64,000 nucleotides of DNA from a virus (Duplodnaviria > Heunggongvirae > Uroviricota > Caudoviricetes), in IMG/VR virus record IMGVR_UViG_3300032308_002078, positions 16,073 through 80,072 of that record. One strand, given 5' to 3'. The stretch's first letter is position 1; the number at the start of each line of letters is the position of its first letter. Of this stretch, positions 1,203 through 51,126 are shown in pieces. Below the pieces are notes generated by a model. It did no database searches. It saw only the letters and a program-made list of their open reading frames with translations, and was not told where the DNA came from. A program made the position numbers and the translations under genes.

Positions 1203-1208
1203 ACTAAT

Positions 1209-1865: not shown

Positions 1866-1866
1866 T

Positions 1867-2769: not shown

Positions 2770-2920
2770 TATTCAAGTTTTATAGCAGAAACGACAAAAA
2801 TCAAGAGACAATTGGTCGTGTAGTTACAACCTCAAGGTTACAAGCAGCTAAATTATTTGCTGAGAGAAAACAACTCCCATTAAAAGAATTCTTAAAGATA
2901 TTTGGTGTAACAACTATCAT

Positions 2921-3301: not shown

Positions 3302-3304
3302 GTT

Positions 3305-3610: not shown

Positions 3611-3643
3611 AGCTAAACCTTTTAAAATTTTTTAATATTTATA

Positions 3644-4486: not shown

Positions 4487-4488
4487 AA

Positions 4489-7637: not shown

Positions 7638-7820
7638 ATGAAACTAGATGGAGGTGCTTTGGAATTCTTTCAAAGTCTACCTGATGACTTAATGGTTCAA
7701 ATAGCTATTAATGATTGGGATGCTTTAGAAAGATTATGTATAGCATTATCCTTAGACATTCAACTTATCATTGAAGATGCTGAGCGATTGAAGAAAAAGA
7801 AAAGAAAAAACAAAAACTAA
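7638..7820 (+). CDS. hypothetical protein
   Basis: 60 aa ORF, overlapping start of next gene. Confidence 0.3.
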   Translation: MKLDGGALEFFQSLPDDLMVQIAINDWDALERLCIALSLDIQLIIEDAERLKKKKRKNKN

Positions 7821-11873: not shown

Positions 11874-14423
11874 ATGGCGAGTCTACTCAACAATGCTTCA
11901 CTCTTATTAAACCCAGCAGGCAGTATAATTGCCTATGAAGAGGATAAAATATTTTCTGTATTACCATCAAATGGTACTGGTGATTTTACTTTTACTGGTG
12001 GTGATGGAGGTACTAGAGTAAACCAACAAGGATATGTTGAAGTAACACCTGCTAACACAAACACATATAGTGAAAAATTTGGAACTGGATTTTGGAATAA
12101 TTTTGGTGGTACAATAACAGATGACTCAGTTATAGCTCCTAATGGAACATTAACAGGTACTACTTTTAATGGTAGCCCAGCAGGTACATATAAAACATAT
12201 CCGGGTATTGCAGTAGGACAAGTTTACACAGTTTCAATGTATGTTAAATTAGGAACTGCTACAAACTGTGTTATTATTATAAATAATACTCAAGCATGGA
12301 ATACAGTTGGAGGTAAATCATTTACAAGTGCTGATGGGTTAAATACTACTGATTGGACAAGAATATCTTTTACATTTACTGGCCCTGCTTTTGGTGCTAT
12401 AAACTGGCATATTGGTTATCAGTTTGAGTCAGGGGTAACTCAACAAACAAATGGTACTTACTTTGTTTGGGGTGCACAACTTAATATTGGCTCAACAGCT
12501 AAACCATACCAACCAACAACAGACCGCTTAAATTACCCTCGTATAACTTATCAAAATGGTAGAGGTGCTTTATTGAGTGAACCACAGAGAACAAATGTTA
12601 CAACTAATAGCCAAACTATAAGTGCAGGTACCGGTACTACTGTTTCTTTGGATAGTGGAATATCTCCTGATGGAACTCAAAACGCTGATAAACTTATAGA
12701 AGATACAAGTACAGGAACTCATATAACAACATTTGGAGGTTCTTTAGGTGGTTCTGTAGATTCAAGTACTTTTTGTGTTAGTATCTTTGCTAAAGCTGCT
12801 GGTAGAACACGTTTCATAATATTCGACAATAATCAGGGTGCAGGTGCTGCTATAAATGTTTTTGATTTAGGTAATGGTACAAAAATTAGTGGGAATGGAA
12901 CTATTGAAAATTATGGAAACGGGTGGTATAGGTGTATTATTTTTCCATCAAAAACTGATAATACAACAGCTAATATACAAATTAGATTAATTAATACAGG
13001 AACAAATGATAGTTACACTGGAGATGGATCTAGCGGTATCTTTTTTTGGGGTAAACAAATCGAAGTAGGTGAATTTCCAACCTCATACATCCCAACAACA
13101 TCAGCAACAGTAACTAGACCTATAGACCAATTCTTTAAAAATGATTCACCAGCTTTAAGTACTACTAGTTGGACATTTTATATGTCTGGAGTTAATATAG
13201 GAAAAAATCAAAATTCTAGTGGGAATCCTATTGATGCTGTAAACTGGAGTTTTGATAGTGGTGCTGGTCCTTATGGGGCAAACTCAATACATAACTACAA
13301 TAATACAGTGTATTATTATGATACTGTTAATGGGGCAGCATTTTTAGGGGCAATTGGTAGTACAACTACAAAATTTGCAGTTACTAAAAACGGAACTACA
13401 TTTAAATTTTTTAGAGATGGAGTTTTAACTACAACAAGTACACTTTCTTTAGCAAGTAATGTTTGGGATTCATTTAGAATGTATGGTGATGTAGATGGCC
13501 AAGGCCAAGCATTTTCAAATAACCCATCTACATTAGCTATTTTACCCTCAGCTTTATCAGATTCAGATGCACAATCACTAACCACAGTCCGCTCAGGTTC
13601 AGGTGGTAACATCTCATACTACGGACCATACACAATCCATACATTCACAGGCTCAGCAACATTCACTCCTTCATTTACAGGTCCTGTAGAGGTACTTGTT
13701 GTTGCTGGAGGTGGTGGAGGAGGTTCTGGTTTTAATAGATCTGCCTGTGGTGGTGGAGGTGGTGCTGGAGGTTTACTTTATGCTTCATCCTATGGTGTAT
13801 CTGCTGGTACTGGAATAACTGTCACTATTGGTGCCGGTGGTGCTGGTGGACCTGCAGGTACAGGAAGCCCTACAGGAGATGGTTCTAATGGCTCTAATTC
13901 AATATTTGGAGGATTAACATCTATTGGTGGTGGTGGAGGTACTACTTATTTTGATACTAATGGTAAAAATGGAGGTTCTGGAGGTGGAGCTGGAGGTGCT
14001 GGTGGTTATACTCCAGTAGGCGGACAAGGAATACCAGGCCAAGGAAATAATGGCGGAAACCAAGTTGGTTCAGGACAAAGTACAGACACTACATCTTGTG
14101 GAGGTGGTGGAGGTGCTGGAGCTGTAGGAGCAAACGGAGTTACCTCTCAAAGAGGAGGTAATGGTGGTATTGGTCTACCTTACTATATTTCAGGATTTTC
14201 TACTTATTATGCTGGTGGTGGTGGTGGAGGTGCTTCACAAGTAGGTGGTGGATTTGGAGGTCTTGGTGGTGGAGCCAATGGAGGTAATTTAGATAGTAAT
14301 GGATCTAGTGGTGTTAATTATACAGGTGGAGGCGGAGGCGGAGCTAGTTCAGGGGTTGGAGTAGCAGCAACAGCAGGTGGTACAGGAGGTTCAGGCATAG
14401 TAATAGTACGTTATTTAACTTAA
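11874..14423 (+). CDS. tail fibre / receptor-binding protein with C-terminal glycine-rich domain
   Basis: 849 aa; Asn/Thr/Gly-rich beta-type sequence; C-terminal YTIHTFTGSATFTP...VEVLVVAGGGGGGSG... long GGxGG repeats ending GGSGIVIVRY, the same module as in ORF 17121. Confidence 0.55.
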   Translation: MASLLNNASLLLNPAGSIIAYEEDKIFSVLPSNGTGDFTFTGGDGGTRVNQQGYVEVTPANTNTYSEKFGTGFWNNFGGTITDDSVIAPNGTLTGTTFNGSPAGTYKTYPGIAVGQVYTVSMYVKLGTATNCVIIINNTQAWNTVGGKSFTSADGLNTTDWTRISFTFTGPAFGAINWHIGYQFESGVTQQTNGTYFVWGAQLNIGSTAKPYQPTTDRLNYPRITYQNGRGALLSEPQRTNVTTNSQTISAGTGTTVSLDSGISPDGTQNADKLIEDTSTGTHITTFGGSLGGSVDSSTFCVSIFAKAAGRTRFIIFDNNQGAGAAINVFDLGNGTKISGNGTIENYGNGWYRCIIFPSKTDNTTANIQIRLINTGTNDSYTGDGSSGIFFWGKQIEVGEFPTSYIPTTSATVTRPIDQFFKNDSPALSTTSWTFYMSGVNIGKNQNSSGNPIDAVNWSFDSGAGPYGANSIHNYNNTVYYYDTVNGAAFLGAIGSTTTKFAVTKNGTTFKFFRDGVLTTTSTLSLASNVWDSFRMYGDVDGQGQAFSNNPSTLAILPSALSDSDAQSLTTVRSGSGGNISYYGPYTIHTFTGSATFTPSFTGPVEVLVVAGGGGGGSGFNRSACGGGGGAGGLLYASSYGVSAGTGITVTIGAGGAGGPAGTGSPTGDGSNGSNSIFGGLTSIGGGGGTTYFDTNGKNGGSGGGAGGAGGYTPVGGQGIPGQGNNGGNQVGSGQSTDTTSCGGGGGAGAVGANGVTSQRGGNGGIGLPYYISGFSTYYAGGGGGGASQVGGGFGGLGGGANGGNLDSNGSSGVNYTGGGGGGASSGVGVAATAGGTGGSGIVIVRYLT

Positions 14424-14424
14424 T

Positions 14425-14625
14425 ATGGATATAATAGAACAATATTTAGGGTTATGGGGTGTAGATGTAGCAGTTAAAAAATTACGTCCACATGCTCAAT
14501 TTGAACTTTACAATACAACATTTACTAAGTGGGTTGATCCTACAGGAACACAACCTCCTACTTGGGAAGAAATAAACAAACAAATAGAAAAAGATAAAGA
14601 ATTATGTCATACTTTGCACACATAA
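14425..14625 (+). CDS. hypothetical protein
   Basis: 66 aa. Confidence 0.3.
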   Translation: MDIIEQYLGLWGVDVAVKKLRPHAQFELYNTTFTKWVDPTGTQPPTWEEINKQIEKDKELCHTLHT

Positions 14626-14942
14626 ACGAAAACAGTGTTGTTACTACCGTTATAGTAGCAACTCAAGAATTTATTAATACAGGTAGTGAAGGCGATCCTG
14701 CTAGTTGGATAGAGACATCTATAGACGGTAGTTTCCGCAAACAATATGCGGGTATAGGTTATACTTATGATGCTCAAGCAGATGTATTTATATATCCTCA
14801 ACCTTATCCTTCTTGGGTTTTAGATTCAAATTATGATTGGGTTGCTCCTGTTCCTTATCCAAACGATGGTAAGTGTTATGTGTGGGATGAGACAATTATT
14901 AACTGGGCAGAAGTACCTTGTATGCCAACTGGATCTATTTAA
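14604..14942 (+). CDS. hypothetical protein
   Basis: 112 aa. Confidence 0.35.
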   Translation: MSYFAHINENSVVTTVIVATQEFINTGSEGDPASWIETSIDGSFRKQYAGIGYTYDAQADVFIYPQPYPSWVLDSNYDWVAPVPYPNDGKCYVWDETIINWAEVPCMPTGSI

Positions 14943-14943
14943 T

Positions 14944-15333
14944 ATGCATAACTACCAATATAGAAAATATATGATGAGTGATTTATTTCTGTTAAATGAG
15001 ATAACTCAAAGTTATACTAACCCAATTACAGAGGAAACTAGTTTTACTTACACTCAAACAGTTTATATAATGGGTCCAATTTGTGAACAATATGTAAGTG
15101 CAAGTTCTCCTATGGGAATGCCTATTATGTCTTGTTCACTTTGGTCTACAGCATCGGCAGTAGATATTTTATGGGATCAAGAACCACTACCTAATTTTAG
15201 TTCAAGTGAGGTATGGCCTTTTCCAGGTACAGAATTAACTACATTTGGCAATGCAATGCCTATTTACCAAAAAGATTATTGTGAGCGTTTCTATTGTCCT
15301 ACAGGTTCAGGTCCAATACCTCCACCTCTTTAA
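14944..15333 (+). CDS. hypothetical protein (start revised; track ORF 14833 begins inside previous gene)
   Basis: ATG at 14944 immediately after stop of preceding ORF; MHNYQYRKY... Confidence 0.35.
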   Translation: MHNYQYRKYMMSDLFLLNEITQSYTNPITEETSFTYTQTVYIMGPICEQYVSASSPMGMPIMSCSLWSTASAVDILWDQEPLPNFSSSEVWPFPGTELTTFGNAMPIYQKDYCERFYCPTGSGPIPPPL

Positions 15334-15351
15334 TATTTATAATAAACCAAT
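15334..15351 (+). promoter_or_regulatory. class 2 (late-type) motif AATATTTATAATAAA
   Basis: One of at least 11 copies 5-25 nt upstream of start codons of tail-fibre, endonuclease and other genes (3621, 5164, 9937, 11842, 15335, 18603/18624, 19483, 27383, 29373, 49135, 60594). Confidence 0.45.
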
Positions 15352-17121
15352 ATGCCAAATCCTGTTGCTGTTAATGATCTAAGTCCTATATCCGGAAGCC
15401 TGCAAACCTCTAGGATAAGTTATGCTGTAGATACAGCAGGTAAAGATTATGGTCAAGACTACAACGGTACTACCTGGTATTCAGATATTCCACAAAACGG
15501 AAGTCAATATACAATTATTTCAGATAATTACACAGCTAACTACTATGTATCTCGTTCAAATGCCGAAGGTGCTTATGTTGAAGGTGGTTTACCAGCAGTA
15601 GATGAATATTCTGCTCCTGTGTTTTGGTTGACGGCAGGTACATCAAGTTTAGATATTATAACTATTGTGAATGGATTACCTGATAGAAGAGGACAAATAC
15701 CATTTAACTCGGGTTCTCAAGCATTAAATTGGGTCGCCTCATCAAGTAATTATTTTGCTGTTGGGCCTCCATATGAACAAATTGATGCTGATTCTTTAAA
15801 ATTATATTTAAATGCAGGTCAAATTATTTCTTATCCAACTACAGCTTCTACTTGGTATGATATAAGTGGATATAATGGTTTAGGAACTTTAACTAATGGA
15901 CCTACATTTAATACAAATGGATGGATTGCTTTTGACGGAACAAACGATTATGTTAACTTTTTTAATAACCTTAATCTAAACATAGGTACTAGTAACTTTT
16001 CAGAAACAGTTACTTTTTTAATCAACTCAGTTACAAGTGGTCAAAGAATAACTTTTAAAAGATTTGGAGGTTTAGGGTATGGTTACTCTATGTTTATAGA
16101 TGGAACTGGAGCACTTGGATTTGAAATTCTTACCCCAAGTACATCTATTACTGCGTATGGTGGGTATCCTTCAACAGGAAGATGGCATCAAGCAACATTT
16201 TCATTAGATAGAGCAGGAAATGGTATATTATATCTTGATGGGGTTGCAGGTACTCCTGTTAACTTTAGTTCATTAGTTGGGTTAGATATTTCTAATAATG
16301 AGGATTTTTGTTTAGCAGCAGTAAGTCCTGCTATTGGTGGTGGTGCTTACTTAAATGGAAACTTATCAACAGTATCTTCATACTCTAAACAATTATCAGC
16401 AGCAGACGTGGCTCAAAACTACTACGGTGGTCCAATTGTAACAAATGGTTTAGTATATGCTCTAGATGCAGGTAATTTAGTATCATATCCCAAATCAGGA
16501 ACAACATGGTATACTTTAACAGGGAGTGTAGATGGAACTTTAACAAATGGCCCTACATTTAGTTCCCTAAACGATGGGTATATTAATTTTGATGGAACTA
16601 ATGATTATGTTGGGTTTGGAAATAACATATTATTTCCTGGAGTATCATTAAATGGAACTATTTCTGAATTAACAATAGACGTTTGGGTCAATTGGAACCA
16701 ATTCTGTGTTGGTGGAGCATTAGATGAAATTATATCATGGTGGGCTTCAGGAACTCAGACATATTCAGATGGTTTCCTAGGAACTTCTATTATATCTCCG
16801 TATTCTCCAACCAACCCTGGAATCCGCTTTGGAGATGATTGGGTTGGTACAGGGGTAACATTTACAGCTGCTACTGATGTAAATAAATGGTGGAATATAA
16901 TGGCTATAAAATCCTCCAATAATGCTTACATATACATAAACGGAGAATTAAGAGCGACTAAAGGTAGTGCTTTAGATTGGGGTTTTAATAATTATGCCTA
17001 TGTCGCTGCTCATGGAGGTGGGGCAACAGAATTTTTAGATGGAAAAATAGCCTCATTACGCCTATACAATAGAGCACTCACCGCAGCAGAAGTCTTACAA
17101 AACTATAACGCAACAAAATAA
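15352..17121 (+). CDS. tail fibre paralogue with two concanavalin A-like/LamG lectin domains
   Basis: Conserved N-terminus MPNPVAVNDLSPISGSL..ISYAVD; repeated LDAGN..SYP..GTTWY.L.G...GTLTNGPTF...FDGTNDYV and LYNRALTAAEVLQNY LamG-type modules. Confidence 0.55.
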   Translation: MPNPVAVNDLSPISGSLQTSRISYAVDTAGKDYGQDYNGTTWYSDIPQNGSQYTIISDNYTANYYVSRSNAEGAYVEGGLPAVDEYSAPVFWLTAGTSSLDIITIVNGLPDRRGQIPFNSGSQALNWVASSSNYFAVGPPYEQIDADSLKLYLNAGQIISYPTTASTWYDISGYNGLGTLTNGPTFNTNGWIAFDGTNDYVNFFNNLNLNIGTSNFSETVTFLINSVTSGQRITFKRFGGLGYGYSMFIDGTGALGFEILTPSTSITAYGGYPSTGRWHQATFSLDRAGNGILYLDGVAGTPVNFSSLVGLDISNNEDFCLAAVSPAIGGGAYLNGNLSTVSSYSKQLSAADVAQNYYGGPIVTNGLVYALDAGNLVSYPKSGTTWYTLTGSVDGTLTNGPTFSSLNDGYINFDGTNDYVGFGNNILFPGVSLNGTISELTIDVWVNWNQFCVGGALDEIISWWASGTQTYSDGFLGTSIISPYSPTNPGIRFGDDWVGTGVTFTAATDVNKWWNIMAIKSSNNAYIYINGELRATKGSALDWGFNNYAYVAAHGGGATEFLDGKIASLRLYNRALTAAEVLQNYNATK

Positions 17122-18596
17122 TGAGTAGATTCGAAGGACCACAAGGTATAGTAACAAACGGTTTAGTATTAAACCTAGATGCAGGCGATCCGGATTCATA
17201 CACTCGCTCACAACCTCCATATGTTGAGGTATTAGTTGTTGCTGGTGGTGGTTCTGGAGGGATAAGAGAGTCTAATAGTAATCCTTTTTGCGGAGGTGGA
17301 GGTGGCGGAGCTGGTGGTTTGATTTACAATAGTGCTTATCAAATTACTAATGCTGCTGCTATCACAGTTACTGTTGGTGCTGGAGCTGCTTCTCCAACTT
17401 CAAATAATGTTAATGGTAATAACGGATCAAACTCAGTATTTGGATCATTAACTGCTATTGGAGGTGGAGGAGGAGGTGCATATCAAGCAAATGGTGTTTC
17501 TGGAGGTTCTGGAGGTGGAGCAGGTAGAGATGCTGTTACTGCAGGCGGAGCAGCTACAGCCGGCCAAGGTTTTCAAGGAGGTAATGGAGGTTTAAATCCT
17601 GTAGGATCTGGAGGAGGAGGAGGTGCAGGACAGCCGGGTGCTATAGGAACTGCTATTGGGGGTAAAGGAGGAGATGGTTTAGCATTCTCTATTTCTGGTA
17701 CTTCTACAACTTATGCTGGTGGTGGAGGAGGTGCTTCTTTTAATAATAATGCAACCCCTAATTCTGGTTCTGGGGGTGGGGGAAATGGTGCTGTTGAAAC
17801 TAGTAATCCTATAGCTACTGCAGGACAAGCTAATACAGGTGGTGGTGGAGGTGGAGACAAAGGTGGAGCAGGTGGCTCAGGCATCGTCATAGTACGTTAT
17901 CCAGGTTTACCAGCAGCAACCGGAGGTACAATCACATACCTAAACGGATATACAATCCATACATTTACTACTAGTGGTACATTTACTCCATATCAATGGT
18001 ATAGTAATACCAATTCAGTATATAGTGGATCTTTAATTAACGGTCCTGCATTTAATTCCCAAATTGTTGGTGGATATTTCCAATTTGATGGAACTGATGA
18101 TTATGTTTTATTTGATGCTCCTATTGGCTCAACTACTACAGTTTCTGTTGAAATGTGGAGTAAAATCCCATCATCTTATCCTAGTGATATGTTTTTTGGT
18201 TGGAATGCTTATGATGTTTGGTGTGATAATGGTAATATAGGATATAACACAAATAATGGTGATGTGTATGGTATTTCAGCAGCTACAGTTTCTTCTTTAG
18301 GATTAGTAAATAACTGGGTACAATATGTTTTTGAAATGAGGAGTGATGTTTCCTATACTAATAATAAAATATACATTAATGGTATTTCTCAATCTTTATC
18401 TCAACTACAAAATAGTGAAAATGGAGGAAATAGAAATTTTAATAGTGGAGCAGGAGTATTTCCTGGATATAGAGCATCTTTAGCAAGTTATTTAATGGCC
18501 TATCAAGTAGGTTCATTTAGAGTATATAATAGAGCTCTTTCAGCAGCAGAAATAACTCAAAACTTCAACGCACAAAGAAATAGATTCGGTTTATAA
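17121..18596 (+). CDS. tail fibre protein with N-terminal glycine-rich domain and C-terminal LamG-like domain
   Basis: VEVLVVAGGGSGG...GGxGG repeats...GGSGIVIVRYPG then YTIHTFTTSGTFTP...FDGTDDYV...YNRALSAAEITQNF. Confidence 0.55.
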   Translation: MSRFEGPQGIVTNGLVLNLDAGDPDSYTRSQPPYVEVLVVAGGGSGGIRESNSNPFCGGGGGGAGGLIYNSAYQITNAAAITVTVGAGAASPTSNNVNGNNGSNSVFGSLTAIGGGGGGAYQANGVSGGSGGGAGRDAVTAGGAATAGQGFQGGNGGLNPVGSGGGGGAGQPGAIGTAIGGKGGDGLAFSISGTSTTYAGGGGGASFNNNATPNSGSGGGGNGAVETSNPIATAGQANTGGGGGGDKGGAGGSGIVIVRYPGLPAATGGTITYLNGYTIHTFTTSGTFTPYQWYSNTNSVYSGSLINGPAFNSQIVGGYFQFDGTDDYVLFDAPIGSTTTVSVEMWSKIPSSYPSDMFFGWNAYDVWCDNGNIGYNTNNGDVYGISAATVSSLGLVNNWVQYVFEMRSDVSYTNNKIYINGISQSLSQLQNSENGGNRNFNSGAGVFPGYRASLASYLMAYQVGSFRVYNRALSAAEITQNFNAQRNRFGL

Positions 18597-18678
18597 TTAA
18601 TATTTATAATAAAATAATAATATTTATAATCGCCAAGTCGAGGTGGCATTTAAGATATTAAAAATATAATACCCAAGC

Positions 18679-19470
18679 GTGAGTAAGGACCTCGACCCTG
18701 AAAGCGTCTTGGGTTTTTTATTTATGAATAATATAACTTACATATACGAATTATCAAAAAATGGAATACCATTTTATATTGGAAAAACAATATCCCATGT
18801 TGTTAGAAAACATTACCATAAATTAACTTATGGGAAAGATATTGTATTTACTATCATAGATGAAATACAAGGAGATAAAAATCAATGGAAACCTTTAGAA
18901 ATGTATTGGATAAACCAATATCAACAATGGGGTTTTGTTTTAAAAAATAAAAATGAAGGTGGTGGAGGTAGAAAAATTATTTATACTAGAGAAGAGATAA
19001 GACAAAGACGTAACGAACAAACCAAACAATGGAATAAAATCCACCCAGAAGTAAGTAAAAAATATTCTGAAGAAAACAAAGAAAAATTTAAAGAATATAG
19101 AGAAACAAATAAAGAAAAAATGCTTCAACAAACTAAAGAATGGAGAAAAAATAATCCTGAGTTAGCTAAACAAATGGTAAAAGATTATCAGGAGAAACAT
19201 AAAGAACAGATTAAATCCTATATGCAGGAATGGCAATCCGCTAACAAAGAAAAAATAAGAGAGTATAATAGAATTTATAAAAATTCAAAATCTACCAAAC
19301 AAAGAAAAAATATAATTCAATATACTTTAGACGATATTTTTATCAAAGAATGGAATTCAGCTACTGAAGCTGCTTTATTTTTAAATAAAAAAACACCTGC
19401 GGCAATATATGAAGTATGTAATGGAAAACGAAAAACTATTTATGGATATAAATGGGGATATAAAAATTAA
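18679..19470 (+). CDS. GIY-YIG homing endonuclease inserted between tail-fibre genes
   Basis: ITYIYEL...FYIGKT; Lys/Glu-rich repeats; C-terminal IIQYTLDDIFIKEWNSATEAALFL...GYKWGY; two ATATTTATAATAAA motifs upstream. Confidence 0.7.
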   Translation: MSKDLDPESVLGFLFMNNITYIYELSKNGIPFYIGKTISHVVRKHYHKLTYGKDIVFTIIDEIQGDKNQWKPLEMYWINQYQQWGFVLKNKNEGGGGRKIIYTREEIRQRRNEQTKQWNKIHPEVSKKYSEENKEKFKEYRETNKEKMLQQTKEWRKNNPELAKQMVKDYQEKHKEQIKSYMQEWQSANKEKIREYNRIYKNSKSTKQRKNIIQYTLDDIFIKEWNSATEAALFLNKKTPAAIYEVCNGKRKTIYGYKWGYKN

Positions 19471-19506
19471 TTAATTTATCAATATTTATAATAAAATAAT
19501 AATAAC

Positions 19507-19791
19507 ATGGCAACACAAGAATCTGAATATGCTAATCGCAGGTTTGTAATTTTCAACGTTACAGAACTCCCCCTTATTGACTTTAACCAAGTCTATGAAA
19601 CATCAATTGATACAGTTCGTAAATCAGTTGATGAAACTCAAACATTCGTAAAATACGATATGCCCCAACCTTCATCAGTTACTGCTTTAACTACAAAATC
19701 TATAGAATACACATATGATGAGATTCTAACTATTCTAGCGACTCCAGAATGGACAGACCCTAACCCATTTCCTTCAGGTTCAATAGGTTAA
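19507..19791 (+). CDS. hypothetical protein
   Basis: 94 aa. Confidence 0.35.
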   Translation: MATQESEYANRRFVIFNVTELPLIDFNQVYETSIDTVRKSVDETQTFVKYDMPQPSSVTALTTKSIEYTYDEILTILATPEWTDPNPFPSGSIG

Positions 19792-19795
19792 TTGA

Positions 19796-22057
19796 ATGTC
19801 TAGGCCTATAGCATATAATGCTTCAGGTCCTTTGTCTGGTAGTATTAGAGGAGGATCTGTTAATTACACTGTAGACAGTGGTAATAGGGACTATACTACC
19901 TTTGCCTCTAAAAAATGGGTACCTTCGGCAGACGGAGTTGCCCCAATTGTATTTGTAACAGATTCATATACTCAAGGGTTTGAAGGTAATCCTAATCTAG
20001 CAGTACCATTGTTTTATTCTTGTAATGGAACAGGTTCGGCAGCTATTATCTATACCGCAAACCGCATACCTGGTTCACCAGGTAATTACAGTGATGCAAA
20101 TGTTGCATTAAATGATTTAATAACTGCTAGAGGTTATTTTATTTTAGAATCAAATGATCCATTTGAGGGAGTAGATGCTGATAGTTTATTATTAGATGTT
20201 GATGCCTCTAAAATGTCTTCTTATCCTCAAGTAGGTACTAACTGGATTGATTTGAGTGGTAATGGAAATACAGGAGCTTTACAAAATGGGGTATTATTTA
20301 GTTCAAGTGGATGGTTTAATTTTGATGGAACTAATGATCAAGTAGCTACTTCTGTTACTAGAGGAACTCTAGGAGATAGTACTAGTGTTGAAGCTACTTT
20401 CCAATATCAAGGAAATAGTGGAGATGCTTATCGCCCTATTATTGGAGGTAATGACCCTGGAGCAGGTACTGAATTCTTTTTAGGTAAAAATTTTGGTAAT
20501 ACTTATTTTGGTGTTCAAGATGGAAATTATGATGGGGGTTTTGTAACAGGATATAATGTGTTCGATGGTAGATGGCACCATATGGTTTACACATATAATA
20601 ATAATACTGGAAAGATTTATTTAGATGGTACTTTAAGAAATACTGGTACTTTTTCTAAATGTAATATTGGGGAACAAATTTATATTGGAGCTGAAGTACA
20701 AGAAGGATACTGGTGGAAAGGAAATATATCTCAGGCAAAATATTACACACAAACATTAACTGAAACTCAAGTCAAACAAAACTACTTCGGTTCACCAATA
20801 GTCACAGACGGTCTAGTATTTGCTGTTGATGCTAATAATATAGTATCATATCCTAAATCAGGAACATCAGTATATAATTTAACAGGTAGTGCAACTACAG
20901 GAACATTAACAAACGGAACATCATTTAATATATCAAATGGTGGTTCTTTTATGTTTGATGGTACTAATGATTATATTGTATTTCCTGACGACACTAATTT
21001 AGATAGTCAAGCTATCACAATGGAAAGTTGGAGTAATATAAGTACACTTTTCCAAAATGGATTTTTATTTGAAAAAGGAAATGTAAACACTCAATACAGT
21101 AATTTTTTTAATAGTGACGGTACTTTTTACTTTAGAACAATGGGTTTAAGTGCCCAAGATTTAACATTCTATTGCCCTAGTTACATAAGTCCTAATACTT
21201 GGAATCATATTGTTTGCACATATGGAGCAGGAATTAAAACAATTTACATAAATGGTATTCAAATAGCTCAACAAACTGGATTAACTGGTATTATTCCTAC
21301 AAATCCAGCTGGTTTGTTTTTAGGAGCTTATGGACCTGGTTCAAGTTATTTCTTAAATGGTAAAATAGCTAATTCTAGAGTATACAACAAAGCACTTACA
21401 GCTGCCGAAGTCCTCCAAAACTACCAAGCCGAACAATACAGATTCAAAACATTCCCTGGTATTCCAACAAACGGATTAATACTCCATCTAGATGCTAATA
21501 ATAAACAATCTTACCCAGGTACAGGTACAGTGTGGTACGATATTTCAGGACAAGGGGCTAATGCTGATTTAGTTAATGGTGTTGCTTATAACTCAGCAGG
21601 ATACTTCTTCTTTGATGGAACAGACGATATAGCAAACTCTATTAACATATCTCAAGAATATAGAGATTTAGTTATAGGAATATGGAGTGAAAGCAATGGT
21701 GGTCTAGAAATGGTATTCTCACTTTATGGAGGATCAGATGCTTCTTTTAGATTAAATGCCAATAATATATTTAGTGCTAATAATAGTGATGACTGGCAAT
21801 TTGGATCTAATAATTTAGTATTTGTTGATGGAGTATATACTCCTGATGCTAATTTAGCTAGTCAATTCCATTTTGTAAGAACTTATAGATCAAATAATGT
21901 AGATTTTGGAACTTCATTTAGATATAGCTTATCATCTACATTCTTAAGTAGATATTTTAAAGGTAAAATAGCATTTGTCTTAGCTTATAATAGACAATTA
22001 TCAGATGCTGAGGTTAGAGGATTATATTATTATTATAAAGACAGATTTCCATTCTAA
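19796..22057 (+). CDS. tail fibre paralogue with multiple LamG-like domains
   Basis: N-terminus MSRPIAYNASGPLSGSI..VNYTVD is paralogous to ORFs 15352 and 22057; three FDGTND/YN(K/R)ALTAAEVLQNY modules. Confidence 0.55.
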   Translation: MSRPIAYNASGPLSGSIRGGSVNYTVDSGNRDYTTFASKKWVPSADGVAPIVFVTDSYTQGFEGNPNLAVPLFYSCNGTGSAAIIYTANRIPGSPGNYSDANVALNDLITARGYFILESNDPFEGVDADSLLLDVDASKMSSYPQVGTNWIDLSGNGNTGALQNGVLFSSSGWFNFDGTNDQVATSVTRGTLGDSTSVEATFQYQGNSGDAYRPIIGGNDPGAGTEFFLGKNFGNTYFGVQDGNYDGGFVTGYNVFDGRWHHMVYTYNNNTGKIYLDGTLRNTGTFSKCNIGEQIYIGAEVQEGYWWKGNISQAKYYTQTLTETQVKQNYFGSPIVTDGLVFAVDANNIVSYPKSGTSVYNLTGSATTGTLTNGTSFNISNGGSFMFDGTNDYIVFPDDTNLDSQAITMESWSNISTLFQNGFLFEKGNVNTQYSNFFNSDGTFYFRTMGLSAQDLTFYCPSYISPNTWNHIVCTYGAGIKTIYINGIQIAQQTGLTGIIPTNPAGLFLGAYGPGSSYFLNGKIANSRVYNKALTAAEVLQNYQAEQYRFKTFPGIPTNGLILHLDANNKQSYPGTGTVWYDISGQGANADLVNGVAYNSAGYFFFDGTDDIANSINISQEYRDLVIGIWSESNGGLEMVFSLYGGSDASFRLNANNIFSANNSDDWQFGSNNLVFVDGVYTPDANLASQFHFVRTYRSNNVDFGTSFRYSLSSTFLSRYFKGKIAFVLAYNRQLSDAEVRGLYYYYKDRFPF

Positions 22058-24384
22058 TGCCACAACCAGTATCATATAACCCCGGAACACCAGTATCAGG
22101 TAGCATACAAGAAAATAGTATCTCATATGTTGTTGATGGTCAAAACCGTAACTACAGAGGTGGTTTCGGAGGACTATCTTGGATGAGTGAAGTACCGGCA
22201 GCCAACAATGTTATTTTTATAGGTAACTCTGTTAGTTTAGGTAGAGGACCAGCTAATATACCTTTATTTTATCCCTCATATAATAACAGTGCGGCCAATA
22301 TTATTTATGCCGCTAATACATTACCGGGTTCACCTAGAAACTTTACTACAACAGGTAGTGCTTATAATTGGGCGGCAACAAATAATTTCTTTATTAATAA
22401 CTCAGATAACCCTATTCCTAGGATTGATGCTGATGGGTTAGTATTATATTTAAATGCTTCCCTCCCAACTTCATACCCACAAACAGGAACAACATGGTAT
22501 GATTTATCAGGATATGGGAATAATGCTACTTTATATAATGGATTAAATTCAAACTGGAATTCAAATGGGTGGTTTTCATTTGATGGGGTAGATGACAATG
22601 CCGCTATAAATTATGATTCTACTAGTATGGCTGCTTGGACTGGAAGTCAAACTATTATATTTTGGGAATATCATACCTTTAATGATGGAAGTAGAAGAAA
22701 TTTATGGAATCAAGCATACGGTGGGGCGGGAACATGGACACATGAACAAGGATATAACATAAATTACTTCTATGGAAACTCAGGAACAGACAATAGTCCA
22801 TATACAGCATTAACCTCAGATCCAACTCCTTTAGGTAGATGGAATATGTTAACTACAACTAGAGATCCAAGTCAAGTAAAATGGTATATAAATAATATTA
22901 ATACAAATAATCAATCAAATCCATTTGGTGTACTTACTCTTACAACAGCTGGTATAACTATAGGAAATGGTTATACAGGAGTACCTTGGGTTGGTAATAT
23001 AGGAGCTATAGCAGCTTATAATAAAGCTTTAACTCAAGCTGAAATAAATCAAGTATATTTCCAAGGTAATATTGTTACAGGTAGTTTAGTATTCATGGTA
23101 GATGCTAATAATTTAGTATCATATCCTAAATCAGGAACAACATGGTATAATTTAACAGGTAGTTCAGGAAATGCTCTATTTTATAATGGACCTACTTATT
23201 TACCCCAATACGGAGGAGGTATTAATAGAGACAATACTGATGATTTTATATCAGCTAGTATCAGTGTTTCTACTACTACAAACTATAGTGTAGAAACTTG
23301 GTTTAAAGCAAATCCACTAACTGGAGCTAACTATAATGCTTTAATTAGTGCTTGGAACGCACCCGGTGGTGGAGCAGGGTCATGGGAATGGCAGTTTTAC
23401 AATGGTGTATTAGGAGTTCATCCAAACTACACAGTAGCTTATACTCCCAATACAATAGCTCATGCTGTTTATACTCAAAATGGAACAGAAACAAAAATTT
23501 ATTTAAATGGGATACTACAACAAACAAGTACTACTTCTGGTGTTGATTTAAGAAATGGAAGTATAGGAATTGGTAATTTAAGTGCTCCTGGGTATGGTGG
23601 ATATAATTTAGAAAGCACATTCTATAATGTTAGATTATATAATAAAACATTAACCTCAGATGAAGTCCAACAAAACTATCAAGCAACTAAAGATAAATTC
23701 CTAGGTCAAAATATAGTAACAAATGGATTAACACTTTATTTAGATTCTGCTAATAAAGATTCATATCCCGGAACAGGAACAACATGGTATGATTTAAGTG
23801 GGAATGGATATAATGGAACATTAATAAATGGACCTTCATTTTTATCTAACCAAAATGGAGGCATCTTAGACTTTGATGGAGTTGATGATTATACTTCTTT
23901 AGGGTCTTCAGCTGCTTCTTTAATACAAGGAAAAACAGCAGTCACTATAGGTATTTTCTTTAAATTAGATGTTTTAGATACTTTAAGAGGATTAATAGGT
24001 ACTTTAAATTATTTTTGTGGTGGAAATTTAGGATTGGTAGCTAGGGGCGATGTTTTAACCTTTTATAACGATACAGGGATTTGCTATGATGTAGGTATTT
24101 CAAGTTTTGTAGAAACAGGAAAATGGATATATGCTGTAGGAACATATGATGGAACTACTACTAGAATATATGGAATTAAAGATGGAACTTTATCCCAAAG
24201 TAGTGGAACAAGTAAAAGCGGAGCTACAAATACTTTCACCTCAGATTTTATAGTTATAGGAAACCAATACCCCTATTATTTTACAAATGGACAATGTGGT
24301 ACAGCCTTTGTTTATAACAGAGTATTAAGTCAAGCAGAAATCCTTCAAAACTACAACGCTCAAAAAACAAGATTTGGCCTTTAA
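22057..24384 (+). CDS. tail fibre paralogue with multiple LamG-like domains
   Basis: N-terminus MPQPVSYNPGTPVSGSIQ..ISYVVD; repeated SYP.TGTTWYDLSG..NG.L.NG and LSQAEILQNYNAQKTRFGL modules. Confidence 0.55.
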   Translation: MPQPVSYNPGTPVSGSIQENSISYVVDGQNRNYRGGFGGLSWMSEVPAANNVIFIGNSVSLGRGPANIPLFYPSYNNSAANIIYAANTLPGSPRNFTTTGSAYNWAATNNFFINNSDNPIPRIDADGLVLYLNASLPTSYPQTGTTWYDLSGYGNNATLYNGLNSNWNSNGWFSFDGVDDNAAINYDSTSMAAWTGSQTIIFWEYHTFNDGSRRNLWNQAYGGAGTWTHEQGYNINYFYGNSGTDNSPYTALTSDPTPLGRWNMLTTTRDPSQVKWYINNINTNNQSNPFGVLTLTTAGITIGNGYTGVPWVGNIGAIAAYNKALTQAEINQVYFQGNIVTGSLVFMVDANNLVSYPKSGTTWYNLTGSSGNALFYNGPTYLPQYGGGINRDNTDDFISASISVSTTTNYSVETWFKANPLTGANYNALISAWNAPGGGAGSWEWQFYNGVLGVHPNYTVAYTPNTIAHAVYTQNGTETKIYLNGILQQTSTTSGVDLRNGSIGIGNLSAPGYGGYNLESTFYNVRLYNKTLTSDEVQQNYQATKDKFLGQNIVTNGLTLYLDSANKDSYPGTGTTWYDLSGNGYNGTLINGPSFLSNQNGGILDFDGVDDYTSLGSSAASLIQGKTAVTIGIFFKLDVLDTLRGLIGTLNYFCGGNLGLVARGDVLTFYNDTGICYDVGISSFVETGKWIYAVGTYDGTTTRIYGIKDGTLSQSSGTSKSGATNTFTSDFIVIGNQYPYYFTNGQCGTAFVYNRVLSQAEILQNYNAQKTRFGL

Positions 24385-24708: not shown

Positions 24709-25443
24709 ATGAAACAAAACATCATCAAAAGTAATCAATTAATATTGATTAATTGCTTCAAAGCAATACTACTATTCATATTAGTAGCTATTTTAGGATT
24801 TCTCACAAGTTGGGTGTTATGGAGTAAAACACCAAAACTAGCACCAACCAATGACCCATTACACCCAATTGGACCGTATATTAAAACAGTAGTTGTTGAT
24901 ACGGTAAATGATATTAGAGGCAAACGAGCATTGTTTATAGGCGACTCACATACGGCTAATCACGGCTATGGTTGGCAGGTACAACTATGTCAAGCAACAG
25001 GTTTAATACAAAACAATATTTCAGTTGGAGGCAAAACAACAAGTTGGATGCTTCAACAAGCCCAAATGTATGTAACTTCAAACTATGACTATTGTTTTAT
25101 ATACGGAGGTGCTAATGACATGTATAATAGCCATATAAGTGCTGGAATGGCGTTTAATAACATTCAATACATGGTTAACATATGTAAGTACAAAGGTGTT
25201 AAACCAATTGTATTAACTGGATTTGATTATTCAGTTTGTACTAGGACTGAAAATAAAGCATATCCAGGTAAAGGGGCTGAGTTACAAAGGATGTTACTAG
25301 GGCAGCTTCAGAATGCAACAGTGGTGGATACGAGAGTAGTCTATCGTAGCGATTGTGGTGATGCTTTATGCCATATGAATTATTCAGGGCATCAGAAGAT
25401 GGCACAAGCTGTAATTAGGGCTTGTAAGTTTAGGAAGTATTAA
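24709..25443 (+). CDS. SGNH/GDSL-family hydrolase (esterase), membrane anchored
   Basis: N-terminal TM; block I LFIGDSHTANHGYGW; later YGGANDMYN; probable catalytic His near C-terminus. Confidence 0.6.
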   Translation: MKQNIIKSNQLILINCFKAILLFILVAILGFLTSWVLWSKTPKLAPTNDPLHPIGPYIKTVVVDTVNDIRGKRALFIGDSHTANHGYGWQVQLCQATGLIQNNISVGGKTTSWMLQQAQMYVTSNYDYCFIYGGANDMYNSHISAGMAFNNIQYMVNICKYKGVKPIVLTGFDYSVCTRTENKAYPGKGAELQRMLLGQLQNATVVDTRVVYRSDCGDALCHMNYSGHQKMAQAVIRACKFRKY

Positions 25444-25570: not shown

Positions 25571-26416
25571 ATGAAAAAACTACTAATGACTCTAGTGCTT
25601 ACTTTGATGACAGCACTATCTTTATCCGCGAAATGTGATTGGAGCACACTTAAACTTCAACAATGGAATGAACGTAACTACTATAAGTGGTATGTAAGTG
25701 GGAAAGTATTAGATGATACTTGTGTAGATTGGATGTTTATGGTTTATGATTTTCAAACCAAAAAGACTGATACTGTTAGAGATAACAGAGGGTTGGTAGA
25801 AGTTCAATTTAACGTTAAGGGTAAGTATAAAATGTATTTGAAGGTTTGGAACAAATGTGAGAAGTGTGACACAGCCCTTTACCGGCCTTTAGAAATTATA
25901 CAATTCCCAGGTGCTAAAGTATCTAGTGTAGTAAAGACAGTAGATTGTAAAAAATATACATTTGAAATGAGCTACATTAAAGGATATCCTTTGAAAGATA
26001 CTTGTATGAGCTACTACTTAATGTTCTATTCAGGCCCTTGGATGGCTAAAATGAGTCAAGGTGAATGGGATTCACTCAGTGATTATCAAATTGGAATGGA
26101 GTATGATTTCCCAGATGCTGATTTCTTAGGGTATACTGAAACACGAACTGCTGATTATATCTTTAAAGATACAGGCCGTGTATTAGTGATTGCTCAATGG
26201 TGGAACAAATGTCTTAGACAAGATACGTTTATGTTTAGAAAGCTAGATGTTTGTAAACGTTCTAATGTTTCTAATGTAGTTACATTTAATCGCCCCGAAC
26301 CAAAATTGGTTGCAATGTATGATATTATGGGTCGTCCAGTCCAATATGTTCGTGAAAATGAAATTACTATTTATTTGTATAGTGATGGTTCAACACGAAA
26401 AATAATTAAAAAATAA
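25571..26416 (+). CDS. secreted cysteine-rich protein
   Basis: Signal peptide MKKLLMTLVLTLMTALSLSA; multiple Cys. Confidence 0.4.
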   Translation: MKKLLMTLVLTLMTALSLSAKCDWSTLKLQQWNERNYYKWYVSGKVLDDTCVDWMFMVYDFQTKKTDTVRDNRGLVEVQFNVKGKYKMYLKVWNKCEKCDTALYRPLEIIQFPGAKVSSVVKTVDCKKYTFEMSYIKGYPLKDTCMSYYLMFYSGPWMAKMSQGEWDSLSDYQIGMEYDFPDADFLGYTETRTADYIFKDTGRVLVIAQWWNKCLRQDTFMFRKLDVCKRSNVSNVVTFNRPEPKLVAMYDIMGRPVQYVRENEITIYLYSDGSTRKIIKK

Positions 26417-26912: not shown

Positions 26913-27269
26913 ATGGAAAATACATTTATCTACAATTTAAGCGAGACCGAGTATTTGGTATTTAAATCACAACGTGATTGCTTTGAGTTATTCAGTGGAC
27001 ATGAAGGTTCAGAAACAAACAGTAAACTAGCTACTTATAAAGGAGGTAGATGGATATTTAATGATTATAATCAGAAAAAATTATTCTGGTTTTTGTTTAG
27101 TATTTATAAAAAGGATTTTGGTAAGGCGCTTAAACAATATATTCGCTCACAACAAGATAAACCTAAAACATATATGATTACTTGTGCTAAACGTAGGGTT
27201 GATATTAAAATTACAAAAATAAAACGTAATATGTGGGATTGGTTTTATGGAACATTTTATGGCAAATAA
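26913..27269 (+). CDS. hypothetical protein
   Basis: 118 aa. Confidence 0.35.
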   Translation: MENTFIYNLSETEYLVFKSQRDCFELFSGHEGSETNSKLATYKGGRWIFNDYNQKKLFWFLFSIYKKDFGKALKQYIRSQQDKPKTYMITCAKRRVDIKITKIKRNMWDWFYGTFYGK

Positions 27270-27360
27270 TAGATTAGACGAACAGTATCAAAGATTGCTT
27301 CAAGACATTATTGATTTTGGAGTTGATAAGAAAGATAGGACAGGGACTGGTTTCCTTTAA
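27259..27360 (+). pseudogene. thyA: vestigial 5' fragment of a thymidylate synthase gene (33 codons)
   Basis: Translates MANNRLDEQYQRLLQDIIDFGVDKKDRTGTGFL*, the canonical ThyA N-terminus including the DRTGTG motif; stops after 33 aa; lies upstream of the GIY-YIG gene and the intact thyA. Confidence 0.5.
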
Positions 27361-51115: not shown

Positions 51116-51126
51116 TAACTCTAAAC

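Follow-up and report, generated by a model that had tools for sequence, protein, structure and literature searches.

Organization of the gene cluster

The DNA analyzed here is a stretch of 64,000 nt (the window) from a contig of approximately 154 kb that belongs to an uncultivated phage. Positions 11874-24384 of the window (12.5 kb) hold five large ORFs, all on the + strand and all exactly where an earlier note on this DNA had located them, which we call proteins A (11874..14423, 849 aa), B (15352..17121, 589 aa), C (17121..18596, 491 aa), D (19796..22057, 753 aa) and E (22057..24384, 775 aa). Together with four small conserved ORFs (s66, s112, s120 and s94) they form three tightly packed groups, namely A with s66, s112 and s120, then B with C, and lastly s94 with D and E; the stop codon of B overlaps the start codon of C, and that of D the start codon of E, in an ATGA sequence. 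An Rfam search found nothing within the cluster, and a scan for sigma-70 promoters and terminators, which gave fewer sites than were obtained in shuffled sequences, was uninformative.

The phage is a large myovirus whose hosts are probably Flavobacterium-like bacteria, and Flavobacterium phage immuto is its closest cultured relative as judged by the sheath protein. A search of the cluster DNA against 50,697 phage records returned no match, so the cluster has no close cultured relative.

Protein A and the glycine-rich domain of A and C

Protein A begins with approximately 40 conserved residues and a variable N-terminal region (residues ~41-205), continues into GTA-spike-fibre-type domains (nt 12528-13133 and beyond) and ends in a YTIHTFT hairpin and a glycine-rich (TNF-like/polyglycine) domain (nt 13590-14420). 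Its central region corresponds to the NCBIfam family GTA_spike_fiber in two stretches (1.8e-54), and among PDB sequences it matches those of the RcGTA head spike fibre (6tb9, 6e-28), the baseplate wedge protein 9b45 and the tail fibre gp17 (9occ). The same domain is found in many cultured phages, where it is annotated overwhelmingly as a tail fibre, minor tail or baseplate protein. The name of the spike-fibre domain is taken from a capsid head spike.

The glycine-rich domain recurs in C. Pfam family Gly_rich_2 (PF21722, cut-off 24.3 bits) covers residues 592-847 of A (83 bits) and 33-260 of C (103 bits), the two domains are 51% identical over 265 aa (BLASTP, E 6e-59), glycine accounts for 39% of residues 596-847 of A and 34% of residues 33-260 of C, and invariant glycine columns recur across 104 homologues. 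The glycine-rich GGxGG stretches alternate with beta-strands. The motifs VEVLVVAGGG, GGSGIVIVRY and YTIHTFT, picked out by the earlier note, are each present in both proteins, with YTIHTFT followed by GSATFTP in A and by TSGTFTP in C, and the hairpin flanks the glycine domain as had been described, on its N-terminal side in A and on its C-terminal side in C. The domain of C had been called N-terminal, which is correct as far as it goes, but an HMM built from the LamG units places it inside such a unit: a first LamG hairpin (nt 17142-17207) is followed by the nested glycine-rich domain (nt 17217-17918) and then by a second hairpin with the remainder of the LamG unit (nt 17919-18593). The N-terminal 31 residues of C have a pLDDT below 50 in the AlphaFold model, so this predicted topology, with the glycine domain nested after the first hairpin, rests on sequence only.

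The LamG part of the AlphaFold model of C was matched by Foldseek to clostridial toxin Hc-N lectin and trans-sialidase lectin domains (E 1e-6, probability 1.00), and a profile search matched it to 4qvs at 3e-13, confirming the proposed LamG (concanavalin-type) jelly-roll fold for C, the one protein modelled in this way. Foldseek results with the two-domain model were dominated by the LamG half, and the glycine domain was therefore modelled alone (pLDDT 89, pTM 0.90). For the glycine domain, Foldseek puts the same three matches at the top. The predicted fold resembles those solved for Pam3 gp24 and Bxb1 gp33, making the domain a structural homologue of a tail-fibre distal domain and of a tail-tip brush, and solved homologues occur in tail structures only. 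The glycine stretches of the model carry the DSSP label 'other'. A sequence search of the PDB with protein C found nothing, a profile search gave LamG matches only, plus a non-significant match to Pam3, and the ALK-type glycine-rich family of Pfam was not matched.

Anchor domain and LamG units of B, D and E

An all-vs-all BLASTP alignment of the five proteins established the paralogy of B, D and E as well as that of the glycine domains of A and C. The first three align colinearly beginning at residue 1 (31-32% identity, E 3e-67 to 4e-102) and share an N-terminal domain of ~120 aa, here termed the anchor, followed by two, three and three LamG units, respectively. In B the anchor (nt 15352-15774) precedes units at nt 15775-16431 and 16432-17118, in D (anchor, nt 19796-20164) the units lie at nt 20165-20794, 20795-21454 and 21455-22054, and in E (anchor, nt 22057-22419) at nt 22420-23067, 23068-23706 and 23707-24381. 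The N-terminal motif that had been ascribed to these three ORFs fits D and E exactly, but B has AVN instead of AYN. Laminin_G_3 (PF13385, cut-off 27.6 bits) is matched by B (80.5 bits), C (36.9 bits), D (153 bits) and E (102 bits), and the HMM built from the units finds two in B, one in C, three each in D and E and none in A, so the 9-10 copies previously claimed for these four proteins come to exactly nine.

Searches of Pfam, PHROGs, NCBIfam and the PDB gave no match for the anchor, and a sequence search of the PDB with protein E likewise found nothing; distant homologues of E in S-PM2 and in Flavobacterium phage immuto are annotated as virion structural proteins. A word-indexed homologue search with the anchor gave 15 short fragments only, and an exhaustive profile search was used instead. 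In the wider family obtained in this way the anchor always stands at residue 1, with 1-5 LamG units or distal modules of another kind behind it; the number of modules varies in this wider family only and not among the relatives compared below.

Small conserved ORFs

The small ORFs, described in the earlier note as wedged between the paralogues, turned out to be the most conserved genes of the cluster and are components of it, not insertions. All four are on the + strand, after A and after C: s66 (14425..14625, 66 aa; 88-100% identity in the relatives L002, L005 and L006), s112 (14604..14942, 112 aa; phrog_7759; 90-96% identity in relatives), s120 (14971..15333; 82-95%), for which there is a gene call in L001, and s94 (19507..19791, 94 aa; 88-94%). 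The 166-aa ORF listed from 14833 for s120 is probably too long, and the homologue in L002 aligns from window position 14944. Three of the small proteins end in P(T/S)GS(I/G), the C-terminal ends being PTGSI in s112, CPTGSGPIPPPL in s120 and PSGSIG in s94.

Searches of Pfam, PHROGs and the PDB detected no similarity of the small ORFs to known chaperones or to any solved chain; s94 had no family match in these databases, and a sequence search of the PDB with s112 and s94 found nothing. In phage Melnitz, three homologues of s112 are located among putative tail fibre and tail assembly chaperone genes, in a run where large and small ORFs alternate. On this gene context s112 is a candidate fibre assembly factor, and all four small ORFs probably encode proteins that assist assembly or serve as adaptors.

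The endonuclease insertion

ORF 18679 (18679..19470, + strand; an alternative start ATG at 18724 may apply) is a free-standing gene between C and s94 that is absent from the relatives L002, L005, L006 and L008. Compared with these relatives it is the sole insertion in the cluster, it is recent, and it is confined to this phage. The insert is bounded by a perfect 24-bp direct duplication on the + strand, the left copy at 18599..18622 (AATATTTATAATAAAATAATAATA) and the right copy at 19481..19504, directly upstream of s94, and none of 100 shuffles reached three matches. At the empty sites of L002, L005 and L006 the 24-bp sequence is present once, where the insert has two copies flanking it.

The gene had been read as a GIY-YIG endonuclease, an assignment that finds no backing in a Pfam match of its own (no PF01541 match even at E 5, thus below the Pfam GIY-YIG threshold) and only 15 bits against the NCBIfam model TIGR01453 (cut-off 56), but that is sustained by its homologues. 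Full-length homologues in a crAss-like phage and in Bacillus phage Izhevsk pass PF01541 (31 and 37 bits), and the alignment with them keeps I7, Y8, Y18, G20, R28 and E59 (catalytic Y, Y, G, R, E). Over its last 125 aa, ORF 18679 can be aligned with the tail of the GIY-YIG/NUMOD3/NUMOD1 protein ORF 27408 (8e-11), and its own NUMOD matches are weak. ORF 18679 is thus a predicted divergent GIY-YIG homing endonuclease with a NUMOD-type DNA-binding tail.

The window has a second GIY-YIG gene, situated next to thymidylate synthase. A group I intron was considered for this site and rejected, Rfam finding none and a complete thyA following the endonuclease; upstream there is only a 28-aa remnant of another thyA allele.

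Comparison with related phages

Four related phages have the same cluster architecture, and which of them comes nearest to the window changes from one module to the next. Anchors are 87-100% identical across four phages and LamG units fall to 28-50%; in B of the relatives, the anchor keeps 87-100% identity and the LamG units 33-90%. Against L005, identity is 100% from the spike-fibre part of A to the N-terminus of B and 31% in the LamG part of C, and against L002 it is 88% in the LamG part of C, 89% in the third LamG unit of E and 23% in the middle of A. A tract of 4074 nt is 96% identical to L005 where the background is ~85-88%, and the breakpoints are located at conserved junction motifs. 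As read from these alignments, the mosaic pattern supports recombination between related phages. The modules had been suspected of being shuffled by recombination, and the jumps in identity between modules bear out the recombination, but the outcome among these relatives is an exchange of module alleles within a fixed architecture, without reordering. Recent gene conversion between paralogues in this genome was also considered and found no support, the direct repeats between paralogues being 60-93% identical (mostly 60-82%), no longer than ~150 nt and confined to junction motifs and glycine codons.

Genomic neighbourhood

Downstream of the cluster in L002 and L006, at a distance of 1.1-1.3 kb, comes a 585-aa ORF. 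That of L002 has Pfam domains of phage sheath proteins and shares 51.6% identity with the sheath of immuto, and that of L006 is of the same size. In the window and in L005 the cluster is not directly upstream of a sheath gene, and none occurs within the 64 kb; the flanking genes in the window are non-structural (methyltransferase, esterase and thymidylate synthase), which counts against placing the products on the tail. Glycosyltransferase genes are directly upstream of the cluster in L002, and T9SS-sorted proteins are encoded elsewhere in the window. Proteins A to E themselves have no signal peptide, transmembrane segment or T9SS sorting (C-terminal) domain.

The SGNH/GDSL esterase that had been noted after the locus (24709..25443, + strand) was verified by a match to Pfam Lipase_GDSL_2 (PF13472, 38.3 bits, cut-off 32.9, 2.6e-9). 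It has an N-terminal transmembrane helix, seen in the sequence as the hydrophobic stretch LILINCFKAILLFILVAILGFLTSWVLW, and is present after the cluster in L005 and absent beside it in L002 and L006; because of both features it probably stands outside the fibre set.

A probable adsorption gene cluster with exchangeable modules

Our data suggest that the segment is likely to be an adsorption gene cluster that encodes five virion receptor-binding proteins, the modules of which are exchanged by recombination. The modular system of several receptor-binding proteins envisaged in the earlier note gains support from the LamG fold, the homology of the glycine domain and the tail-protein domain of A, and a conserved N-terminal attachment region with a variable distal region was found across four phages. 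The anchor of B, D and E presumably docks these proteins to equivalent sites on the tail, and their two or three LamG lectin-like beta-sandwiches presumably bind host surface glycans. A and C would display a TNF-like/polyglycine bundle like the one at the receptor-binding tip of the tail fibre in Pam3, and C, since it is without an anchor domain, probably rides on another component, perhaps B. Host range would evolve via homologous recombination between related phages, with crossover points predicted at the anchor-coding 5' ends, at the VEVLVVAGGG and GGSGIVIVRY borders and at the unit-boundary motif YN(R/K)AL(T/S)AAE..QNY / IVTNGLV..LDA...SYP.SGTTWY; conserved segments acting as crossover points would allow single binding modules to be replaced with the architecture fixed. 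The free-standing GIY-YIG homing endonuclease appears to have entered the spacer between C and s94 recently.

We infer 'tail fibre' as the physical location of A to E, and three other placements have to be weighed against it. As regards oligomeric state, likewise a matter of prediction, LamG arrays are usually monomeric beads and not trimeric fibres, which counts against the fibre reading. It is possible, if rather unlikely, that A to E are accessory adhesins, that is, a non-essential wing, brush or whisker-like decoration that aids reversible adsorption to polysaccharide, and not primary fibres; the Bxb1 homologue of the glycine domain, the closest from a siphovirus, belongs to just such a dispensable wing, but five large genes spanning 12.5 kb in an architecture conserved in four phages, the extreme module-level diversification expected of primary host-range determinants and the lack of other fibre-like genes in the 64-kb window argue for primary fibres. 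That some or all of them, A especially, sit on the capsid as head fibres or spikes, like those of the Rhodobacter gene transfer agent, seems very improbable: the RcGTA head spike fibre is the best match to the centre of A in both NCBIfam and PDB sequence searches and the cluster is not beside tail genes in this window, yet a baseplate wedge protein and a tail fibre of solved structure also contain this domain, its annotations in cultured phages point overwhelmingly to the tail, the glycine-rich domain has been solved only in tails, and the cluster adjoins the sheath gene in L002 and the same-sized 585-aa ORF in L006. We give hardly any credence to non-virion lectin-like proteins, retained in or released from the infected cell and modifying or masking host glycans, for instance, together with the neighbouring esterase, methyltransferases and glycosyltransferases, a reading for which one can cite the frequency of LamG domains in secreted bacterial proteins, the SGNH esterase and methyltransferase neighbours, the glycosyltransferases upstream in L002 and the T9SS-sorted proteins of the window. 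Its form as secreted effectors was rejected on the lack of any signal peptide or T9SS domain in A to E, which also have no transmembrane segment, and both the solved homologues in phage tails and the conserved N-terminal anchor with variable distal modules, the classic pattern of receptor-binding proteins, favour virion components.

Within the adsorption cluster reading, the endonuclease could be more than a passenger. The earlier note had suggested that it perhaps helps the shuffling, and cutting of endonuclease-free relatives during co-infection would then lead to co-conversion of adjacent modules, a process established in T4, where free-standing endonucleases of the Seg and Mob types co-convert markers. 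The insertion polymorphism with its 24-bp duplication, the position of the gene, with the cluster's two longest stretches of conserved sequence on either side, and the local recombination footprint at the second GIY-YIG gene, with its 28-aa remnant of the replaced thyA 5' end, are all compatible with this role, which we nevertheless regard as unlikely: the four relatives without the gene display the same mosaicism when compared with one another, which means that exchange can proceed without the endonuclease, and breakpoints occur at module junctions cluster-wide, not concentrated near the insertion. The suggestion is not supported for what is a recent insertion in this phage only. Quite doubtful, too, is a full cassette-exchange system with motifs kept as recombination joints. 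If it were true, LamG and polyglycine modules would be swapped singly between co-infecting phages, with free-standing GIY-YIG endonucleases supplying the double-strand breaks; the glycine domain nested in LamG would be a composite binding site of a kind undescribed so far, and the three small proteins ending in P(T/S)GS(I/G) would represent fibre adaptors or chaperones of a new class.

Relation to known systems

The adsorption cluster illustrates a known theme well and does not represent a new kind of system or biological principle. Among homologues of the glycine domain, tail fibre gp24 of cyanophage Pam3 (PDB 7YPX, 7YFW), with its chaperone gp25, differs in that the domain here is C-terminal to spike-fibre domains (A) or nested in LamG (C), is about twice as long (~230-250 aa) and is seen without a helical trimerisation domain. 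Mycobacteriophage Bxb1, a siphovirus of an actinobacterium, has the homologue gp33 or 'tail wing brush' (PDB 9D93 chain Qa), a 230-aa single-domain protein on a deletable gp30-gp31 wing, without LamG or spike-fibre domains. The glycine-rich domain of the metazoan cytokine receptors ALK/LTK (PDB 7LIR, 7LRZ, 7NX3) is far weaker as a match (~15% identity over ~100-114 residues). As in gp38 of T-even phages and Salmonella phage S16 (polyglycine-II sandwich), a glycine-rich scaffold would present variable loops at the fibre tip, and C, like gp38, is without a fibre-shaft or anchor domain of its own. In gp38, conserved glycine motifs delimit exchangeable variable segments.

The LamG units are similar (~30-33% identity, E down to 2e-28) to proteins p175-p177 of the T4-like cyanophage S-PM2 and to gp050/gp051 of immuto, which carry virion structural annotations and have fibre genes beside them; the S-PM2 proteins were reportedly identified by virion proteomics. 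Those of immuto, labelled 'structural proteins', have a single unit and are encoded upstream of its sheath gene with fibre genes on either side, and those of S-PM2 exceed 1000 aa and contain other domains, but neither set has the anchor domain, a 2-3-unit array or a nested glycine-rich domain. Side-by-side paralogues with conserved N-terminal docking and divergent distal parts are also known from the branched fibres and tailspikes of CBA120, G7C, phiK64-1 and phiKp24, which use trimeric beta-helix depolymerases, whereas the distal parts here consist of LamG beads and polyglycine bundles, and no enzyme domain is predicted in them. Our search of the literature on LamG receptor-binding proteins of phages found no paper on this architecture.

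Little is understood of host range in uncultivated aquatic and Bacteroidota phages, and the cluster offers a clear natural example of single binding modules exchanged at defined junctions. It could help in annotating the receptor-binding proteins of viromes, in predicting hosts and in designing chimeric fibres, because the junction motifs mark swap points that spare the fold. It also ties to solved tail-fibre structures two very abundant unannotated metagenomic families, with more than 3775 matches for LamG/Gly_rich_2 and 1374 representative clusters for anchor-plus-LamG.

Domain content of the proposed receptor-binding cluster

The five large ORFs lie on the + strand exactly where the earlier note had placed them: A at 11874-14423 (849 aa), B at 15352-17121 (589 aa), C at 17121-18596 (491 aa), D at 19796-22057 (753 aa) and E at 22057-24384 (775 aa), within an AT-rich window (27-42% G+C) in which the + strand carries nearly every ORF. 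The window is a segment of the 154-kb ENA metagenome scaffold KRAE22-1 scaffold_7. The best-supported reading of this cluster is a host-recognition locus for several virion receptor-binding proteins. The proposed paralogy was borne out by all-vs-all BLASTP: colinear alignments starting at residue 1 link B, D and E (31-32% identity, E 3e-67 to 4e-102), and A and C share 51% identity across 265 residues of their glycine-rich regions (E 6e-59). The Pfam matches, all far over the curated cut-offs, are Gly_rich_2 (PF21722) at A 592-847 and C 33-260 and, in each of B-E, Laminin_G_3 (PF13385); glycine makes up 39% of the glycine domain of A and 34% of that of C, and the border motifs quoted for these modules were found in the sequence. 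An HMM of the LamG unit, built from intact units, confirmed the recurrence claimed across B, C, D and E and set its count, previously given as 9-10, at nine (B 2, C 1, D 3, E 3, A 0). Likewise, the N-terminal motif said to be shared by B, D and E holds for D and E (AYN), but B has AVN. No signal peptide, transmembrane segment or T9SS sorting domain was detected in A-E from sequence and Pfam.

The N-terminal domain of B, D and E (the anchor, ~120 aa) has no match in Pfam, PHROGs, NCBIfam or PDB. An exhaustive profile search returned homologues in 1374 representative clusters, 55 of them at E <= 1e-30, with the anchor at residue 1 in nearly all stronger matches and a distal part made up of one to five LamG units or of LamG together with other modules (e.g. 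DUF285 repeats, PKD). The anchor would behave as an attachment domain with swappable distal parts. The central region of A contains two GTA-spike-fibre domains (NCBIfam NF048003, 1.8e-54) and matches, in the PDB, the RcGTA head spike fibre, a 'gp46 Baseplate wedge 2' protein (9b45) and tail fibre gp17.

Modelled structure of C and its proposed nested glycine domain

Homologues of C are abundant in metagenomes (>3775), almost all with PF21722 and most also with PF13385, and none of them bears an informative name. The AlphaFold model of full-length C, computed from an alignment of 104 of these homologues, has a pLDDT of 79.9, with most of the glycine domain >90 and residues 1-31 <50. Foldseek matched it to concanavalin-type lectin domains, i.e. 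the clostridial toxin Hc-N domain and the trans-sialidase lectin domain, so that the LamG/jelly-roll fold anticipated in the earlier note is confirmed for C at the level of the model. The glycine domain gave ten Foldseek matches altogether, from three families, and its solved structural relatives are the Pam3 tail fibre gp24 and Bxb1 gp33. In Pam3 a TNF-like plus glycine-rich unit forms the distal host-recognizing end of a single tail fibre, for which the chaperone gp25 is required (PMC9608196), and the Bxb1 and Pam3 domains have been described as polyglycine/PPII bundles resembling S16 gp38 (PMC13243192).

The LamG-unit HMM matches C twice, with model positions 1-22 at residues 8-29 (E 8e-6) and positions 5-228 at residues 267-485 (E 1e-20), from which we infer that the glycine domain (33-266) is nested within the LamG unit, downstream of its first hairpin. 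Since residues 1-31 are poorly modelled, this topology is deduced from sequence. After the glycine domain of C comes the TITYLNGYTIHTFTTSGT hairpin, which the LamG model aligns at these first-hairpin positions too, whereas the equivalent hairpin of A lies ahead of the glycine domain, a permutation between the two proteins that had been described correctly. The N-terminal hairpin residues of C are invariant or nearly so among the 104 homologues, suggesting that the nested layout is a family trait.

Evidence for module exchange among related phages

Four related loci were retrieved, one on a 307-kb JGI contig (L002) and three on IMG/VR contigs of 99-136 kb (L005, L006 and L008), and all four have the same A-E gene order and domain architecture. 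Module-by-module identities across the four phages are 82-100% for the small ORFs of the cluster (s66, s112, s120 and s94, named by length in aa), 87-100% for the B, D and E anchors and 28-50% for most LamG units, and the nearest relative of the window switches along the cluster. Compared with L005, the window is 100% identical from the spike-fibre domain of A to the B anchor and 90% identical in the first LamG unit of B, and only 45% in the N-terminal module of A, 39% in the second LamG unit of B, 31% in the LamG unit of C and 43% in the third LamG unit of E. Compared with L002, the last two modules reach 88% and 89%, and the middle module of A and the first LamG unit of B 23% and 34%. At the DNA level, window 12488-16561 corresponds to L005 3563-7636 with 96.2% identity over 4074 nt, against ~85-88% in conserved flanking genes, which points to a recent exchange that took in the greater part of A, the first half of B and the three small ORFs between them.

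Module junctions delimit the tracts of high identity: 12488 lies directly ahead of the spike-fibre domain of A, 16561 inside the unit-start motif block of the second LamG unit of B, 17869 at the GGSGIVIVRY border of C and 23662 at the boundary motif between the second and third LamG units of E. The identity jumps between modules, together with these breakpoints, are good evidence that related phages exchange single modules by homologous recombination at conserved joints, in agreement with the recombination suggested in the earlier note. Repeats shared by the paralogues within the window genome are short, confined to junction motifs and glycine codons, and 60-93% (mostly 60-82%) identical; recent intragenomic conversion among the paralogues is therefore not evident from this repeat comparison.

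The conservation of s66, s112, s120 and s94 identifies them as members of the cluster and not, as had been thought, as insertions wedged between the paralogues. s112 (14604-14942) belongs to phrog_7759, and homologues of s112 are encoded by many aquatic podoviruses and myoviruses; Methylophilales phage Melnitz carries three, in a run of alternating larger and small ORFs among genes with putative tail fibre and tail assembly chaperone annotations, and this gene context suggests an assembly role. The motif P(T/S)GS(I/G) occurs 0-6 residues from the C-terminus of s112, s120 (14971-15333) and s94 (19507-19791), the sole three matches among 128 + strand ORFs (~20,000 aa), and is kept in most of their homologues in three relatives. 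A similar P(I/L/V)SGS(I/L) is found at residues 12-17 of the B, D and E anchors.

Proposed role of the cluster

We propose that B, D and E would be three anchor-plus-LamG arrays of the host-recognition cluster, A a spike-fibre/polyglycine receptor-binding protein and C a LamG/polyglycine protein lacking the anchor and coupled translationally to B, with the conserved small ORFs acting as assembly factors and the whole evolving via module exchange at conserved joints. The match of A to the RcGTA head spike fibre raises the alternative that A is itself a head spike, which is unlikely; cultured phages carrying its spike-fibre domain have it annotated as tail fibre, minor tail, tail protein J or baseplate protein. 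A role of A-E outside the virion is very unlikely. Cyanophage S-PM2 encodes distant LamG homologues with virion structural protein annotations, and Flavobacterium phage immuto has single-unit LamG 'structural proteins' among its fibre genes, upstream of its own sheath gene. The five proteins may be an accessory 'brush' and not the primary fibres; the Bxb1 wing bearing gp33 is dispensable.

Multi-protein receptor-binding loci, polyglycine fibre tips (S16, Pam3, Bxb1), LamG structural proteins and mosaic fibre genes are already known. In the literature searched we found no description of a lineage-specific anchor with LamG arrays, of a glycine-rich domain nested in a LamG unit, or of sharply defined module joints in such a cluster, the protein families of which are very large in metagenomes.

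Homing endonucleases

The endonuclease ORF at 18679-19470 (+) lies on an 882-bp insert between the two copies of a perfect 24-bp direct repeat (18599-18622 and 19481-19504) and is absent from all four relatives, whose empty sites hold one copy of the 24-bp sequence between the C stop and the s94 start. Pfam detected no GIY-YIG domain in this ORF. The C-terminal half of its product can be aligned with the DNA-binding tail of the window's bona fide GIY-YIG/NUMOD protein (8e-11), a crAss-like Bacteroides phage and Bacillus phage Izhevsk have full-length homologues that exceed the Pfam GIY-YIG threshold, and the catalytic Tyr, Tyr-Gly, Arg and Glu are kept in the alignment with homologues; the GIY-YIG identity proposed earlier is thus upheld, as a predicted divergent homing endonuclease. 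The suggestion that it helped module shuffling is not supported, as relatives without it are equally mosaic.

The bona fide GIY-YIG/NUMOD3/NUMOD1 gene (27408-28082), which L005 lacks, lies directly upstream of a full-length thymidylate synthase gene (thyA; 28061-29140), and a 28-aa thyA N-terminus remnant of a different allele (27268-27351), just ahead of the endonuclease gene, is 93% identical to L005 thyA. This arrangement resembles what an endonuclease-associated replacement of the thyA 5' end would leave behind. A group I intron at this site was rejected, with none found by Rfam. A further pair of endonuclease-like genes (3644-4486 and 46571-47752; PHROG homing endonuclease/HNH, 1e-15 and 4e-67) brings the window to at least four.

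The 14-nt motif ATATTTATAATAAA occurs seven times in the window, on the + strand only (5166, 9935, 15333, 18600, 19482, 27389 and, with one mismatch, 49136), a count attained in 0 of 100 shuffles. The majority sit within a few bases of a start codon, on its upstream side, among them the start codons of B, s94 and the second endonuclease; from the copy at 18600 it is ~80 nt to the first endonuclease gene downstream. The 24-bp repeat duplicated at the insertion contains the motif, and each of the two endonuclease genes has a copy ahead of it. The motif is probably a phage promoter or translation-initiation element.

Host and neighbouring genes

L002 and L006 carry a 585-aa ORF 1.1-1.3 kb downstream of the cluster end, in L002 with phage sheath Pfam domains, and among cultured phages it is the immuto sheath that comes closest to the L002 one (51.6% identity). 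This link and a 630-aa T9SS cargo-type protein of the window (55213-57105), which has cohesin domains and, at its C-terminus, a T9SS sorting domain (Por_Secre_tail, 8e-14), lead us to infer a Bacteroidota host, and the cargo protein suggests export through the host's own secretion system. A 357-aa GEVED-domain protein is encoded at 59521-60594.

The SGNH esterase noted after the cluster is present at 24709-25443 and, with its N-terminal transmembrane helix, is predicted to be anchored in the membrane and not to belong to the virion. The next ORF (25571-26416, 281 aa) has a signal-peptide-like start, MKKLLMTLVLTLMTALSLSAKC; both occur in L005 at ~47% identity and do not adjoin the cluster in L002 or L006. 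The L002 cluster comes after several genes for glycosyltransferases and methyltransferases (1-4713), of which the window retains only a Methyltransf_21 homologue (7820-8770, 63% identity). The window also has 24 tRNA genes clustered at 50806-55171, covering most amino acids, in the same place as the local G+C peak of 0.42.
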